A DNA stretch of 64,000 nt from an uncultured Moraxellaceae bacterium (GTDB lineage: Bacteria; Pseudomonadota; Gammaproteobacteria; Pseudomonadales; Moraxellaceae), in NCBI GenBank assembly GCA_964373105.1, contig CAYJTU010000001.1, forward strand, positions 5,217 to 69,216, given 5' to 3'. The position numbers and the translations under genes were made by a program. Positions 19,702-58,395 of the stretch are shown piece after piece; the stretch's first letter is position 1; every line of letters starts with the position of its first letter. The notes beneath the pieces are model-generated. The model was not told the origin of the DNA, searched no databases, and saw only the letters and a program-made list of their open reading frames with translations.

Positions 19702-21234
19702 ATGAAGTTATCAGTCGGACTGAGAGTCTCAAGCTCGTTATCGCTTACCCCCCAATTGCAGCAGGCGATCCGCCTCCTGCAACTCTCGTCACTTGAGCTC
19801 GAACAAGAAATCCAAAATCAGCTCGATAGTAATCCGCTTCTTGAGGCAGTAGATGCCTCTCCAGAAGGTCAAGCCTCTGACTCTTTAGATAATAATGTTG
19901 ATTATCAGTCGACAGAACAATCCTCTGATTACGATTCACAAAGTGATTTTCAAGACAGCGCGGTATCCGATGGTGCGTCTTCAGTTGCATTAGATGAGCA
20001 GATGGGTTTGACCCGTTTGGGGGAAGACCTACCGGTCGATACCCAGTGGGATGACGTGTTTAGTCATCAATCGACAGCGCTGGCTTCCCCTGAATTTGAT
20101 GAGCGGGAAGATACGCGGACGGTCAGTGATTCGATTTGGTCTGAATTGCGCTGGCAGTTGAACCTCACGCCATTTAGTCCGGTAGATCGGATTATGGCGG
20201 AGTGCATTATTGATGGGATTGATGAGCGTGGCTATCTAGAAGCCAGCTTAGAAGAGTTGCTTGAAGCAACCCAGAATCAACTCGATGCACTGGATCTGGA
20301 CATCGAAGAAGTCGAGCTCTCCGAGCTCGAAGTGGTTTTAAAGCGGATTCAGAATTTTGACCCTCCGGGTGTGGGCGCCCGTGACTTGAGCGAATGTCTC
20401 TGCTTACAACTACGCGCGCTGCCTGAGCATACGCCTTCGCGCCGGGATGCCCTGAATATGATGGCGCATCATGAATTATTGCTGATCAATGATATCCCGA
20501 AGCTGATGCGTCAAACGGGTTTGGATCAAGATGAGCTGCGCTCTGCCTTGGCGTTGGTGAAGTCTTTAGATCCTTATCCTGGTTTGAAGTTTCAAAACAA
20601 TGAACGTGAGCATCAAGTCCCTGATGTGATTGTTCGTAAGAAAAATGATCATTGGGAAGTGCAGCTCAACACTGATATTTTGCCCAAACTACGCGTCAAT
20701 TCCTATTACGCCAGCATGATCAAACGTGCCGACCAAAGTGAAGAAAATCAATATTTGCGCTCCCACATGCAAGAGGCGCGGAATTTTATCAAAAGTGTCG
20801 ATGAACGACATAAGACTTTACTGAAAGTATCGACGTGTATCGTTCAGCACCAGCGTGCCTTTCTTGAGCATGGTCCAGAGGCCATGAAACCCTTGATTTT
20901 GCGCGATATTGCTTTGGAAACGGAGCTGCATGAGTCGACGGTATCACGGGTTACTACGCAAAAATTCCTATTGACCCCGCGGGGCTTATTTGAGCTCAAA
21001 TATTTCTTTTCCAGCCATGTGGCGACCAGTACAGGTGGCGAGTGTTCATCGACCGCGATTCGCGCGATGATCAAGAAGATGGTTGCGGATGAGAATGTCA
21101 AAAAACCATTATCAGATAATGCATTGACCGAAAAGTTACATGAGGCGGGAATTGATGTGGCGCGCCGGACGGTTGCTAAGTATCGCGAGTCGCTGAATAT
21201 TGCGTCATCCAGCGAGCGTAAACGCTTACTGTAA
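19702..21234 (+). CDS. rpoN: RNA polymerase sigma-54 factor
   Basis: N-terminal LTPQLQQAIRLLQL, LHESTVSR and RpoN box ARRTVAKYRE. Confidence 0.98.
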   Translation: MKLSVGLRVSSSLSLTPQLQQAIRLLQLSSLELEQEIQNQLDSNPLLEAVDASPEGQASDSLDNNVDYQSTEQSSDYDSQSDFQDSAVSDGASSVALDEQMGLTRLGEDLPVDTQWDDVFSHQSTALASPEFDEREDTRTVSDSIWSELRWQLNLTPFSPVDRIMAECIIDGIDERGYLEASLEELLEATQNQLDALDLDIEEVELSELEVVLKRIQNFDPPGVGARDLSECLCLQLRALPEHTPSRRDALNMMAHHELLLINDIPKLMRQTGLDQDELRSALALVKSLDPYPGLKFQNNEREHQVPDVIVRKKNDHWEVQLNTDILPKLRVNSYYASMIKRADQSEENQYLRSHMQEARNFIKSVDERHKTLLKVSTCIVQHQRAFLEHGPEAMKPLILRDIALETELHESTVSRVTTQKFLLTPRGLFELKYFFSSHVATSTGGECSSTAIRAMIKKMVADENVKKPLSDNALTEKLHEAGIDVARRTVAKYRESLNIASSSERKRLL

Positions 21235-54125: not shown

Positions 54126-55124
54126 TTATTTGCCGTGCACCACGTTAGGATCAATGAAGCTGTCTGCATTGAGCAGTTGCTTATACGCCCCAGTGGTGAC
54201 GTTGAATTGGTTGACGAAATAGGTCGAACCATAGATCGAATCAAACCCTTTGCCTTTGACCATGGCTTTTTGATTGGCCGCCAGATCCAGCAAATGGGTG
54301 CCGTTCAAGAAACGTAAATAGGTTGCGGGGGCGACACCGACGCGACCTGACATGATCCGCACTGCATCGGGCTGTGTTTTAGGGTCGTGGATGTACTTCA
54401 CCACGCGGTCCCATACCTTGGTCATCTTGATCCAATCGGCACGTTTTGTCGCAAGACTGGTCGGATTGACGGCGATGCCGTCATAGATCAGCCCCGGTGC
54501 ATCTGCGGAGGTATAGAGCGGGTGAGAGCCAGCCACCGCTTTGAGGGTTTGGTTGGCAACAGGTTGCCAGACCGCGACCGCAGCAACGCTTCCTGAGGCG
54601 AGAATTTGTGGCAGTTCGTTGGTTTTGCCATTGACCAGTTTGACCGAAGATTCAGGAACACCGTATTTTTTGAGGGCGTTGACCAGTAACAAGTGATCAA
54701 CCAATCCGCGTTCCACACCCACGGACTTGCCCGCTAAATCTTTAATGGACTTAATCGCTGGTGTGCCGATGACCATGTCATTGCCACTCGAGTAGTCGGT
54801 CAGCAAGACCATGACGCCTTTGGTGCCGCCCGCGCCTGTGACTAACATATCGCCATTGGTTGCGGCGACGGCATCAAGCTTGCCAGCGGCAAAGGCATCC
54901 AGTGAGGCAGAGTAGTCAAACCATTGAAACGAGGCATCGACGCCTGCTTCTTTCAGCCAGCCTTTATCGATGGCAATTTGCCAAGCGACAAAGCCGGGCC
55001 AATCGCTATAGCCAATTTTCAACGGTGCGGCTTGGGCAACGGATGTCAGCAGTCCAGCTGCGGTGAGTACAAGCCCTGCAACCGCAGTGCGTTTGATGAA
55101 GCGTTGAGTCAATGATGTCTTCAT
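54126..55124 (-). CDS. ABC transporter substrate-binding protein (SsuA/NMT1/THI5-like)
   Basis: Signal peptide; IGYSDWPGFVAW, DYSSGND, DLAGKSVGVE, PGLIYD. Confidence 0.85.
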   Translation of the reverse strand: MKTSLTQRFIKRTAVAGLVLTAAGLLTSVAQAAPLKIGYSDWPGFVAWQIAIDKGWLKEAGVDASFQWFDYSASLDAFAAGKLDAVAATNGDMLVTGAGGTKGVMVLLTDYSSGNDMVIGTPAIKSIKDLAGKSVGVERGLVDHLLLVNALKKYGVPESSVKLVNGKTNELPQILASGSVAAVAVWQPVANQTLKAVAGSHPLYTSADAPGLIYDGIAVNPTSLATKRADWIKMTKVWDRVVKYIHDPKTQPDAVRIMSGRVGVAPATYLRFLNGTHLLDLAANQKAMVKGKGFDSIYGSTYFVNQFNVTTGAYKQLLNADSFIDPNVVHGK

Positions 55125-55225
55125 GATGTTTCCCCGTGAATTAACATTTAAAAAAGTGAATCGTTTTTACAGTGCTGGTAACGTGCTGTGTTGCATGGTG
55201 GTTCAAAAAAATGCATATGCTGGTC

Positions 55226-56305
55226 TTAAACTTTGTGTTCCGATGGACCAAAGGAGTTGAGTGGTCGTGCTTGCTGAGCCAATGTCAGTGTGCCGCTCTT
55301 CAGCCGTGCCTTGAGATAGCCAAAGCTTTGCGCCGTCTGGGCAAACAGATGCTCACCGGCGTTCAGCGCTGGATATTTTTGCATCGTATCTGGCGTTGCA
55401 AAAGCGGGTAAAGGTTGTACGCGGGTATGGTAGTTACAGCCAAAAAACAGCGGAAATGAATAGCGCTCAGTACTGACCTTACGCACCCGATGAGCGGTGG
55501 CGACAAACGTACCCCCACTCCAGATCTCCATGAGATCGCCGATATTGACGATAAAGGCATCCTCCATGGGCGGCGCATCAATCCATTTGCCTTCGCCATT
55601 GACCACTTCTAGTCCCGGCGCAGTGGGCAACAAAATAGTGAAGCACTCATAGTCTGTGTGCGCACCGATGCCTGGGCTATCACTGGCGCTGGCATCAAAT
55701 GGGTAGTGAATCAGACGTAATTGGGACGTGGGATTTTTGATAAAGCCATCCAGCGCATCTTCGGCTAGCCCGAGTGCGAGTGCAAAACCGTGTAAAAGGG
55801 TTTGACCCAATGCAAAGGCTGCTTGGTAATAGGTGCTGATCGCTGCTGCAAAGCCTTCCTGTTCCGGCCAGATATTGAGCCCATGCATCGGCGTCCCTGC
55901 AATCACATCAGGATCATCGACTGAATGCTCAAAGCCCAAATCAAAAGCTTCCTTACGATCGTGCTTGCCAGTGGCGAAGACTTCTTCCCCTTCAGGCACA
56001 TAACCTCTATGCGCTAGATTTCCTGAATTGCCGATGTAGTAGCGCATTTTTTCAGTCAAAGGTAGATCGAAGAAATCTCGGGTTTGCGCAATCAAGTGGC
56101 TGCGCATTAATCTGGATACGGCATGGCCTGTGATATAGAAAAATCCCACTTCACGTGCGGCTTTACCAAGGGCTTCTGCGGTGTGGAGGCGAACGGAAAG
56201 ATCAGGACTGTATAACCCTGAAATATCAATAATCGGTAATTGATCGAAATGATGCGATGTTGGTGGCGCGGTTGTTGGTGAATGTGTTGCTGGTGCATGG
56301 TACAT
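55226..56305 (-). CDS. 2-oxoglutarate/Fe(II) dioxygenase, isopenicillin N synthase-like (start MYHAP at 56305)
   Basis: LPIIDIS, GFFYITGH, HTD...H iron triad (GAHTDY, TAHRV), RYS 2OG-binding motif. Confidence 0.92.
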   Translation of the reverse strand: MYHAPATHSPTTAPPTSHHFDQLPIIDISGLYSPDLSVRLHTAEALGKAAREVGFFYITGHAVSRLMRSHLIAQTRDFFDLPLTEKMRYYIGNSGNLAHRGYVPEGEEVFATGKHDRKEAFDLGFEHSVDDPDVIAGTPMHGLNIWPEQEGFAAAISTYYQAAFALGQTLLHGFALALGLAEDALDGFIKNPTSQLRLIHYPFDASASDSPGIGAHTDYECFTILLPTAPGLEVVNGEGKWIDAPPMEDAFIVNIGDLMEIWSGGTFVATAHRVRKVSTERYSFPLFFGCNYHTRVQPLPAFATPDTMQKYPALNAGEHLFAQTAQSFGYLKARLKSGTLTLAQQARPLNSFGPSEHKV

Positions 56306-56326
56306 GGCGTAAACACTCAGACTGAA

Positions 56327-56376
56327 TCTGGTCGTCCAGAAAAAGTAAGCACCATGATGTTTGGGTCGTCCCAAAC
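56327..56376 (-). ncRNA. Guanidine-II (mini-ykkC) riboswitch
   Basis: Two hairpins with ACGA tetraloops, GUUUGGG-ACGA-CCCAAAC (56376-56359) and UCUGG-ACGA-CCAGA (56340-56327), an 18-nt linker, ending about 21 nt before the ATG. Confidence 0.85.
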
Positions 56377-56433
56377 GGTGGGTTATCGATAACGCGTGAA
56401 GTACGCTATAAACAAATCATTAATCATTATAAA

Positions 56434-56449
56434 AGCAAAGGACATGCCA
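56434..56449 (-). promoter_or_regulatory. Sigma-54 (-24/-12) promoter of the dioxygenase-SBP unit
   Basis: TGGCATGTCCTTTGCT: GG-N10-GC, close to TGGCAC-N5-TTGCW. Confidence 0.8.
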
Positions 56450-56488
56450 TTTTATAAAAATGAATGCGAATCAATGCTGTGACAAAAT

Positions 56489-57360
56489 TTAAGCAATGCT
56501 GGATTCCGCGCGCTGTAAAAAAGCACTGTCATGGTGCGAAAAATGCACTTTTTCGGTGTCTCCGATCCAGCGATTCATCTGCCAAATGTCAGCCACCTGT
56601 TCGCCTGTAAAGGGGATTTGATGGGTATAACCATCAGGACCACACTCCGGTGTCATCGTACTGATTTGATAGCCTTGCGCGCGCTGTGCATCCCAGATGG
56701 CTTCCCAGCAGCGCTGGTGCGATGCGAGACAATCCGCATAAGCGGGGTCTGCAGGATGGGGTACTTGCGGGCCTTGCGGATAGCCGATTCGCCCATGGAC
56801 ATGATGACCGTGCGGGGCAAGTTCAAGGATCGTCTCCCACTCACTGTCCATCAGTCGCTCGGAAACCACGACCCAATGGCTAAAATCACAGGTGAGTTTC
56901 AGGCTGGGGACTTGACGCACGACATCACGAGTGACCCATGGATTGAAAAAAGAACGGCCGCGATGGGTCTCAAAACTACAGATCACGCCGTGTTTGTCCG
57001 CGATATCGACAGCTCGTGAGAAAAAGTCAATTTGCTGATCCAGTGACCAGGCGTCACAACCCGCCATCACATTAAAAAAGCGTGGTTTCAGGTCTTTGCC
57101 ATTGATGATTTTTTCTTCAAGATCAGTAAGGTGATCGGCGATGGTGGCATTGCGCTCAGGAACGTAACTGCCTGCCGTACAGATCTCAGCGATGAGCCCT
57201 AGACCGGATTCGGCGACTTCAATTGCAAAGCGCTCACGGGTCTTAGGATCATGCGGAATCGGGGCTTCAATGCCATCGAATTTGGCCGCGCGAACCATGC
57301 TAAAGGCTTCGGATAGTGGTCCGTTAAAGCCCCAGAAGGTTTTATACAGTTGTAGTTTCA
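56489..57360 (-). CDS. Sugar-phosphate isomerase/epimerase-like TIM-barrel protein (xylose isomerase-like); start MKLQL at 57360
   Basis: FDGIE, FETHRGR, LTCDFSHW, HVHGRIG and TPECG metal-site-like motifs. Confidence 0.8.
56522..56560. promoter_or_regulatory. Tandem NtrC-like enhancer sites
   Basis: AGCACTGTCATGGTGCG (56522-56538) and TGCACTTTTTCGGTGTC (56544-56560) versus TGCACCA-N3-TGGTGCA; about 108 and 130 bp upstream of the inferred start site. Confidence 0.6.
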
Positions 57361-57395
57361 TACGAGAACTCACAAGGTGGATGGAGTCTATATCC

Positions 57396-57411
57396 AGCAA
57401 GTTCTGTACCA
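57396..57411 (-). promoter_or_regulatory. Sigma-54 promoter of the TIM-barrel gene
   Basis: TGGTACAGAACTTGCT: GG-N10-GC, about 36 bp upstream of the ATG at 57360. Confidence 0.7.
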
Positions 57412-57468
57412 TCGGCTTTTTGAGAGTGTTTTAAGAGTGGTTTTAAGCAGGGCTTTTGCGATGCGAAT

Positions 57469-58395
57469 TTAGCGGAGCAGAGCTTGAATTTCTTCACGCA
57501 GCTCACTGAGGTGTTTGGCTTTTTTGAGTTTAGACCACAGCAGTTCGGCTTCGCTATAGCCTTGGGTCAGCATCCCCAACCACTGCTTGTAGCGTCCCAC
57601 CAACCTGGCATCGGTCTTGGCGGGGCTGTCTAAGAAGTCGAGTTGTAACTGGAGCAGCGTTGGCCAGTCGATCTCGGCATGCCCGCGAATGCGGTTGACC
57701 AGATCGGGCCTTGTGACTGCGCCGCGACCCAGCATCAGATCCACGCAACCTGACACTTGCTGGCAGCGTACGGCGTCTTCAACCGTCCAGATTTCGCCAT
57801 TAGCAATCAGCGGCATCGCAACTGCTTCACGCACCGCAGGTAGTTTTTCCCAGTAGGCAGGGGGCTTATAACCATCAGTCTTGGTACGCGCATGGATCGT
57901 CAGCCAAGCGGCGCCAGCGGCTTCAATCGCACGGGCGTTGTCGAGTGTTCGGCTGTCGTCGAGATAACCGAGGCGCATCTTTGCCGATACTGGGATGTGA
58001 CTGGGTACGGCTTGACGGACGGCTTTGATGATCTCATAGATCACTTCTGGCTCATCCAAGAGCACGGCGCCGCCGCGATGACGATTGACGGTTTTGGCCG
58101 GACAGCCAAAGTTTAAATCAATAGCGAGCGCACCCAGTTCGGCGGCAAAAGCAGCATTGTCTGCCAGTGCAATCGGGTCATTGCCCAAAAATTGAATATG
58201 CACGGGTGTGCCGCTGTCGGTTTTGCAGGCGTTATGCAGTTCAGGGCAATAGCCACGAATCACATGGGCAGGTAACAACTGATCGGTCACTCGAATAAAC
58301 TCCGTCACGCACCAGTCGTAAGAGCCGACTTCGGTGAGTAGACGACGCATCGGCGGGTCGGTGAGACCTTCCATCGGGGCGAGGATGAGTTTCAT
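57469..58395 (-). CDS. dusC: tRNA-dihydrouridine synthase (DusC-like)
   Basis: LAPMEG, DLNFGCPAKTV, SAKMRLG, IHART, ANGEIW, MLGRGA. Confidence 0.9.
   Translation of the reverse strand: MKLILAPMEGLTDPPMRRLLTEVGSYDWCVTEFIRVTDQLLPAHVIRGYCPELHNACKTDSGTPVHIQFLGNDPIALADNAAFAAELGALAIDLNFGCPAKTVNRHRGGAVLLDEPEVIYEIIKAVRQAVPSHIPVSAKMRLGYLDDSRTLDNARAIEAAGAAWLTIHARTKTDGYKPPAYWEKLPAVREAVAMPLIANGEIWTVEDAVRCQQVSGCVDLMLGRGAVTRPDLVNRIRGHAEIDWPTLLQLQLDFLDSPAKTDARLVGRYKQWLGMLTQGYSEAELLWSKLKKAKHLSELREEIQALLR

Follow-up and report, generated by a model that had tools for sequence, protein, structure and literature searches.

A predicted sigma-54 promoter with NtrC-type enhancer sites ahead of a guanidine-II riboswitch and an MgdH-like oxygenase gene in Aquirhabdus

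Introduction

In a 64 kb window of an Aquirhabdus genome (Moraxellaceae; 3.59 Mb, a fragmented assembly labelled G000), the gene for an MgdH-like 2-oxoglutarate/Fe(II)-dependent (2OG) oxygenase and the guanidine-II riboswitch in its leader very probably lie behind a sigma-54 promoter. The window, G000:C1:5217-69216, is the whole stretch of DNA that was analysed, and positions given without a contig name are counted along it. On the minus strand the locus runs from the 3′ end of a TIM-barrel gene, which carries two NtrC-like dyads, through a site resembling that of integration host factor (IHF), a −24/−12 element, a leader and the riboswitch aptamer to the oxygenase gene and a binding-protein gene. 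An earlier note on this DNA had described these promoter elements, and all of them are present in position and in sequence; comparisons with relatives support its reading of them.

The sigma-54 holoenzyme is unable to open DNA alone and requires an enhancer-binding ATPase. In the model proposed here, the sigma-54 promoter at 56449-56434 would transcribe the guanidine-II leader, the MgdH-like oxygenase gene and probably the binding-protein gene. The activator would most likely be phosphorylated NtrC. It would occupy two weak sites that share one helical face, at −129 and −107; an IHF bend near −52 would probably aid the looping, and nitrogen limitation would thereby yield transcripts. Guanidine or methylguanidine would cause the two ACGA-loop hairpins of the aptamer to pair loop to loop and free the ribosome-binding region, such that translation of the oxygenase would then also need the ligand. 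A nitrogen-scavenging enzyme would in this way be placed under a requirement for both nitrogen limitation and ligand. We consider this full two-input model probable.

Cells can draw nitrogen from guanidine and methylguanidine by way of the carboxylase pathway and MgdH, a methylguanidine hydroxylase, and either compound is a ligand of the class II riboswitch (PMC12508155). In this study, we describe the promoter, the enhancer-like sites, the leader and the genes of the Aquirhabdus locus, their recurrence within the genome, the genus and the order, and the alternative explanations that have to be weighed.

Results

The −24/−12 element

The element TGGCATGTCCTTTGCT (56434..56449, minus strand), which the earlier note had singled out, is an exact match to TGGCAY-N5-TTGCW, one of two in the window where 0.48 would be expected. 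Its GG and GC doublets are exactly 10 bp apart, the spacing that defines the sigma-54 class. Scored with a crude position weight matrix over the 3.59 Mb of the genome, it reaches 17.8 bits and is tied for second among all GG-N10-GC sites. Genome-wide, 13 of the 26 matches at 16 bits or more are intergenic and co-oriented with a gene, compared with 22 of the 188 matches at 12.5-14 bits, an enrichment of promoter-like positions among the high scorers. TGGCATGTCCTTTGCT itself is intergenic, shares the orientation of the downstream gene and is conserved in relatives beyond the neutral background. With the C of the GC doublet (56435) set as −12, the predicted transcription start (+1) falls at 56423 on the minus strand.

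When relatives were searched directly at the DNA level, the locus was recovered from two congeners alone, G004 and G008 (the genome of the latter being complete), and their 93% identity is too close for footprinting; comparisons were therefore anchored on proteins and riboswitches instead. The 16 bp core of TGGCATGTCCTTTGCT is invariant in both congeners, while the sequence on either side of it changes. Between the stop codon of the TIM-barrel gene and the −12 element, a single position in 66 bp differs among the three genomes, whereas the leader varies. The glnA promoter of the genus, aligned from diverged congeners, reads TGGTA(C/T)GTC(A/C)TTTGCT; TGGCATGTCCTTTGCT differs by a single base from that of one congener, TGGTATGTCCTTTGCT, and by two or three from the others.

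The sigma-54 gene that the earlier note reported in this window is confirmed: rpoN (19702..21234, plus strand) encodes 510 amino acids and matches Sigma54_DBD with 221.7 bits at the corresponding genome position. The genome also encodes five bacterial enhancer-binding proteins (bEBPs), NtrC among them.

Recurrence in the genome and in the order

The genome has two other guanidine-riboswitch operons, and both carry −24/−12 elements. The first, the guanidine carboxylase operon (C45:7571-7336, minus strand; L149), comprises cgdA, cgdB, gca and a probable allophanate hydrolase gene behind a guanidine-I riboswitch of 78.6 bits, which is preceded by TGGCTTGAAATTTGCT and then TATAAT; five of six diverged congeners retain the GG-N10-GC frame amid diverging surroundings. 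The second (C40:7890-10060, minus strand; L148/L158) encodes a paralogous oxygenase (57% identity) with its own guanidine-II aptamer of 23.3 bits, preceded by TGGTCTGATTTTTGCT. Its counterpart in G004 and G008 has TGGTATGTTTTTTGCT at a similar position within unrelated upstream DNA.

The same arrangement recurs across the order (the GTDB order that holds Moraxellaceae and Pseudomonadaceae), where the background for a sigma-54 match of at least 12 bits is 0.013 per 140 nt window. Such a match stands directly upstream of five of the eight oxygenase-linked guanidine-II leaders, and sigma-54 is encoded in all five of the genomes tested for these loci. The sample of operon-leading guanidine-I riboswitches from the order numbers 30; a match lies within 140 nt on the same strand in 22 of these and on the opposite strand in one of the 30. 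As a negative control, guanidine-II riboswitches located before exporter genes or inside gca operons have a sigma-54 match in one case out of 27. At a locus from another family (L118; G105, 1500-1945), two divergent sigma-54 promoters feed a guanidine-II and a guanidine-I riboswitch, and two NtrC-type sites lie about −98 and −129 from both promoters. At L015 (G309, 790-1460), guanidine-I and guanidine-II riboswitches likewise diverge from one intergenic region, each behind a sigma-54-like promoter.

Rank in the genome, conservation in the genus amid varying flanks, near-identity with the glnA promoter and recurrence in the genome and across unrelated families of the order strongly support the sigma-54 reading of TGGCATGTCCTTTGCT, which we hold with high confidence.

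Two side observations concern these loci. The guanidine-II gene of L118 encodes a 336-residue membrane protein. The guanidine-I leaders of L198, L199, L200, L203 and L187, three of them from one genus, are preceded by TGGCAC-N6-TGTA or TTGTA, where GT stands in for the GC that is otherwise nearly invariant at −12. Several genomes repeat this pattern, which may represent either another type of promoter or a −12 variant peculiar to a lineage.

NtrC-type sites and the activator

The two NtrC-like palindromes that the earlier note had placed 22 bp apart in the 3′ end of the TIM-barrel gene correspond to dyad A, GACACCGAAAAAGTGCA (56544..56560, minus strand; centre −129), and dyad B, CGCACCATGACAGTGCT (56522..56538, minus strand; centre −107), each with 3/12 mismatches to TGCACC-N5-GGTGCA. 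They are in helical phase and within the range of about 80-150 bp upstream that is typical of glnAp2. The half-sites of dyad A are unchanged in G004 and G008, which differ in the spacer only; dyad B is brought down to two mismatches in G004 by a non-synonymous change, and it agrees with the site CGCACTGCTATGGTGCG of L118 at 14 of 17 positions. With 2-4 mismatches, the glnA enhancer elements conserved in the genus are no better than the two dyads. Of the six in-phase pairs of NtrC-like sites in the genome, A and B alone occupy the enhancer window of a strong sigma-54 promoter, and we estimate the chance of a pair so placed at about 0.004-0.02. Almost no sites with three or fewer mismatches are found at the glnA, nirB and nasR-like sigma-54 promoters, which were used in an attempt to derive the organism's own NtrC motif by a mismatch criterion; the alignment of glnA across the genus was needed to see the sites.

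Upstream of 22 sigma-54/guanidine-I promoters of the order, 29 NtrC-type sites are observed where 3.1 are expected (Poisson P ~1e-18), although the genomes are related, so that P-values of this kind are overstated while the effect is still large. Their density, 6.4 per kb, is about nine times the 0.69 per kb of the rest of these loci. They cluster at −86 to −137, and both dyads, at −107 and −129, lie centrally in this range.

NtrC is the sole bEBP of the G000 assembly named by NCBIfam (NF008176, 738.7 bits against a cut-off of 620). A second bEBP, with an NtrC-like receiver domain, we take to be PilR-like; two further ones are short and have no receiver domain, and the fifth, broken by a TAA stop, looks like an RtcR candidate. 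The helix-turn-helix of NtrC, LLGWGRNTLTRKLKELG, aligns with the DNA-binding domain of Salmonella NtrC (1NTC), and the enterobacterial consensus should therefore apply; the three positions that differ are alanines in 1NTC, presumably engineered substitutions.

A dedicated activator beside a guanidine operon was considered and rejected: none of the seven bEBPs of the complete congener G008 is encoded near a guanidine locus, and each extra one has a sigma-54-promoted target close to its own gene. As a separate observation, G008 and G004 encode a PAS-PAS-AAA+ bEBP (646 residues) divergent from a nitrilase/radical-SAM/GNAT/AIR-synthase cluster of the Nit1C type (L163; G008:C1:2880000-2893000), and a search of the G000 assembly did not find this bEBP.

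Order-wide enrichment at −86 to −137, sites of glnA-like quality, the recognition helix and the lack of another activator nearby support the NtrC reading indirectly. Given a real promoter, NtrC is the likely activator.

The IHF-like site

Between the dyads and the promoter lies the IHF-like site AATCAATGCTGTG (56469..56481, plus strand; centre −52), with one mismatch to WATCAA-N4-TTR. The site proposed in the earlier note thus exists, and it is weak when taken alone: the window contains 105 such one-mismatch matches, so that about 0.05 would be expected in the 60 bp gap. The three genomes agree throughout this site and over almost all of the 66 bp around it. Six of 22 comparable promoters have IHF-like sites clustered between −48 and −55, with nine observed and 0.62 expected, a generous comparison in that the background is GC-richer coding DNA. 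The genome has three genes of the HU/IHF family. A role for IHF is plausible rather than established, and we rate its chances as even.

The leader and the guanidine-II aptamer

The guanidine-II (mini-ykkC) aptamer (56327..56377, minus strand) consists of two ACGA-loop hairpins, GGGACGACCC and CTGGACGACCAG, which together cover the full length of the RF01068 model and lie adjacent to the start codon. It scores 28.2 bits (E = 7e-4) in a permissive scan; at the gathering score of 32 bits, Rfam has no match in the window. The predicted leader extends for about 46 nt from +1 to the aptamer, and the −24/−12 element is located 57 nt upstream of the riboswitch. A 5′ leader hairpin is predicted at 56383..56415 (minus strand) in both the minimum free energy (MFE) and the centroid folds, the whole leader having z = −3.0, and a perfect 12 bp palindrome, GTTATCGATAAC (56393-56382, minus strand), is part of it. 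The stem differs in sequence in the congeners, where pairing is still possible; the hairpin could stabilize the mRNA or bind a protein.

No U-tract follows the aptamer, which suggests translational or Rho-linked control. The linker between the hairpins, CAUGGUGC (56349-56356, minus strand), is complementary to GUACCAUG (56296-56303), just past the start codon, and in the MFE fold CAUGGU of the linker pairs with ACCAUG after the start codon. This pairing is a candidate for the OFF state under translational control, the mode that we infer here in preference to a Rho-dependent one. The paralogue lacks the sequence.

The oxygenase and its neighbours

The oxygenase P0001 (55226..56305, minus strand; ATG at 56305) has 359 residues and matches Pfam DIOX_N and 2OG-FeII_Oxy; members of its clade of 2OG oxygenases are often encoded behind guanidine-II aptamers. 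It is 52-57% identical to the oxygenases of modules made up of a riboswitch, an MgdL-like protein and a TIGR03427 protein, and 56% identical to a Salinisphaera oxygenase adjoining gca. At other Pseudomonadales loci the oxygenase is followed by a protein of about 324 residues that belongs to no family and by a TIGR03427 binding protein. The ~324-residue protein shares a WLQ...DLRxP motif with the open reading frame (ORF) that follows the gca-adjacent oxygenase in Salinisphaera. This layout matches the published mgdH-mgdL arrangement (PMC12508155). In the Aquirhabdus window the oxygenase gene is followed, after a gap of 101 bp, by a gene for an NMT1/SsuA-type periplasmic binding protein (54126..55124, minus strand; Pfam NMT1; TIGR03427 at 113 bits, below cut-off), which is probably co-transcribed with it.

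The genome encodes the guanidine carboxylase pathway genes. No MgdL homologue was found in it. P0001 is MgdH-like by sequence, and on the model proposed here its substrate would be a guanidino compound. The best PDB match to the oxygenase is an oxygenase of the ethylene-forming-enzyme type, and no solved structure of MgdH or MgdL was found. After the paralogous C40 oxygenase, a beta-propeller protein with weak matches to Virginiamycin-B-lyase and DUF6923 stands in place of the MgdL-like protein and may be an alternative lyase partner.

Beyond the genus, P0001 is most similar to proteins from Paraburkholderia, Trinickia and Pararobbsia (62-67% identity, compared with 50-57% in its own order; L034-L056), which suggests horizontal transfer. 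The loci of these Burkholderiales homologues have no riboswitch directly upstream.

The TIM-barrel gene and a second promoter

The gene whose 3′ end holds the enhancer-like dyads encodes a xylose-isomerase-like TIM-barrel protein (56489..57361, minus strand; Pfam AP_endonuc_2; stop codon at 56491-56489). The ORF call of 307 residues is over-extended; the likely start is the ATG at 57361 (MKLQLYK...), giving 290 residues as in the G008 orthologue. With the start so revised, a second sigma-54-like promoter, TGGTACAGAACTTGCT (57396..57411, minus strand; one mismatch to the consensus), becomes intergenic, in the Dus-TIM region, and stands in tandem with TGGCATGTCCTTTGCT before the TIM-barrel gene. 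The DNA upstream of TGGTACAGAACTTGCT yielded no NtrC-type site, and that between TGGTACAGAACTTGCT and the riboswitch no terminator-like site.

Alternative explanations

Several observations weigh against the two-input model. Both dyads are weak and lie in coding DNA, and among congeners that are 93% identical their conservation therefore says little. In-phase pairs of NtrC-like sites occur genome-wide at about the chance rate (six observed, 4.5 expected). The C45 and C40 guanidine promoters have no NtrC-type site at three or fewer mismatches, loci L008, L013 and L015 have no clear one at the same threshold, and a de novo search found no dyad common to the three Aquirhabdus guanidine promoters. 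The aptamer scores below the gathering threshold; its oxygenase-linked relatives, at 20-26.5 bits, do so too, and the low score thus looks like a property of the subclass. A perfect TATAAT (56432-56427) follows directly on the −12 element. Finally, with no terminator-like site between TGGTACAGAACTTGCT and the riboswitch, read-through may feed the latter, and the gate is then not strictly isolated; such transcripts would likewise depend on sigma-54.

The alternative that survives best accepts the sigma-54 promoter and assigns it to another bEBP, either one of the short receiver-less proteins or one missing from the assembly, the dyads being chance matches in coding sequence. The chance-level frequency of in-phase pairs and the two guanidine promoters of the genus without NtrC-type sites favour it, as do the count of bEBPs (seven in G008, five in the G000 assembly) and the position of one short bEBP gene next to a Liv-type ABC transporter that is possibly nitrogen-related. 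Against this, the complete G008 genome has no bEBP gene near any guanidine locus and assigns every extra bEBP its own local target, NtrC-type sites are strongly enriched at this position throughout the order, and a near-identical site occurs at the independent locus L118. We regard this explanation as unlikely.

A sigma-70 promoter that uses the TATAAT hexamer with an A/T-rich upstream region, the −24/−12 element being incidental or competing, is improbable and has been largely rejected. It is favoured by the perfect hexamer and by the TTGCTTTATAAT arrangement shared with the C45 promoter, where TAGACT-16-TATAAT can be read. However, the best −35 candidate fits two or three of six positions, and a consensus scan of 55000-57600, which includes the intergenic region, found no sigma-70-like promoter. 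The hexamer reads TATGAA in both G004 and G008, losing its key final T and weakening this alternative, whereas the sigma-54 core does not vary; at C45, conservation holds for the GG and GC doublets and not for the −35 region.

That the gap contains no working promoter, its motifs being due to chance and the riboswitch and oxygenase gene being served solely by transcripts that read through from the promoter ahead of the TIM-barrel gene, is very improbable: that sigma-54-like promoter exists and no terminator-like site separates the TIM-barrel gene from the riboswitch, but an exact, second-ranked element 57 nt from a riboswitch would hardly arise by chance at a background of ~0.013 per 140 nt window, the 66 bp from stop codon to −12 are almost invariant, and the arrangement recurs at unrelated loci without a common upstream gene.

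Discussion

The predicted enhancer-dependent promoter resembles both the enterobacterial glnAp2 type, as known from established work, and glnA of the genus. Shared features are the GG-N10-GC −24/−12 element, whose core is one to three bases from that of the genus glnA promoter, two NtrC-type dyads on one face of the helix about 100-130 bp upstream, and the same NtrC recognition helix. Unlike those of glnAp2, the dyads here are weaker, 22 rather than 32 bp apart and located inside the upstream gene; the leader contains a riboswitch, which glnA does not.

[quoted passage not shown] NtcA, a CRP-family protein, binds there near −42 at a sigma-70-type promoter, whereas the Aquirhabdus promoter is predicted to be enhancer-dependent via sigma-54; the Synechocystis riboswitch is of class I, acts on transcription and controls a hydrolase, whereas that described here is of class II, probably acts on translation and precedes a 2OG oxygenase. 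In Vreelandella boliviensis, a 2OG/Fe(II) oxygenase of about 41 kDa is likewise under a guanidine riboswitch, and the gca/mgdH/mgdL operon is strongly induced on guanidine or methylguanidine in comparison with ammonium (PMC12508155). There the carboxylase operon includes the oxygenase gene, with riboswitches of classes I and II ahead of it and MgdL after it, and the promoter type is undescribed (PMC12508155). The Aquirhabdus oxygenase gene, in contrast, stands apart from the carboxylase operon, together with a binding-protein gene and in a genome where no MgdL homologue was found.

Guanidine-II riboswitches before gdx/sugE exporter genes or within gca operons share with the present aptamer two ACGR-tetraloop hairpins directly 5′ of the start codon. 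They score above the Rfam threshold and, as in the control set described above, are rarely preceded by a sigma-54 match, whereas the oxygenase-linked ones score 20-28 bits and are mostly preceded by one. These distributions incline us, with somewhat less assurance than for the single locus, towards an order-wide rule in which guanidine and methylguanidine assimilation operons are gated by NtrC/sigma-54 plus a guanidine-I or guanidine-II riboswitch, and exporter or operon-internal riboswitches are not part of such gates.

The two-input logic as such is already known from NtcA. In the full-text literature, the coverage of which is incomplete and leaves curated regulon databases outside it, we found no report that links guanidine riboswitches with NtrC, RpoN or sigma-54, nor the sigma-54/enhancer version of this logic with class I and class II riboswitches, nor an order-wide rule of this kind.

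Guanidine has only lately been recognized as a natural nitrogen source, and research into when cells use it is ongoing. The Rfam threshold consistently misses a subclass of guanidine-II riboswitches, and tight two-input switches are useful as synthetic-biology parts. On the model proposed here, many Gammaproteobacteria would build a gate like that of NtcA from sigma-54, NtrC and, in some cases, IHF. If the model is true, expression of these genes would require nitrogen limitation plus ligand, ammonium-rich media could hide them, and guanidine assimilation would join the Ntr regulon as a regulon-level rule.

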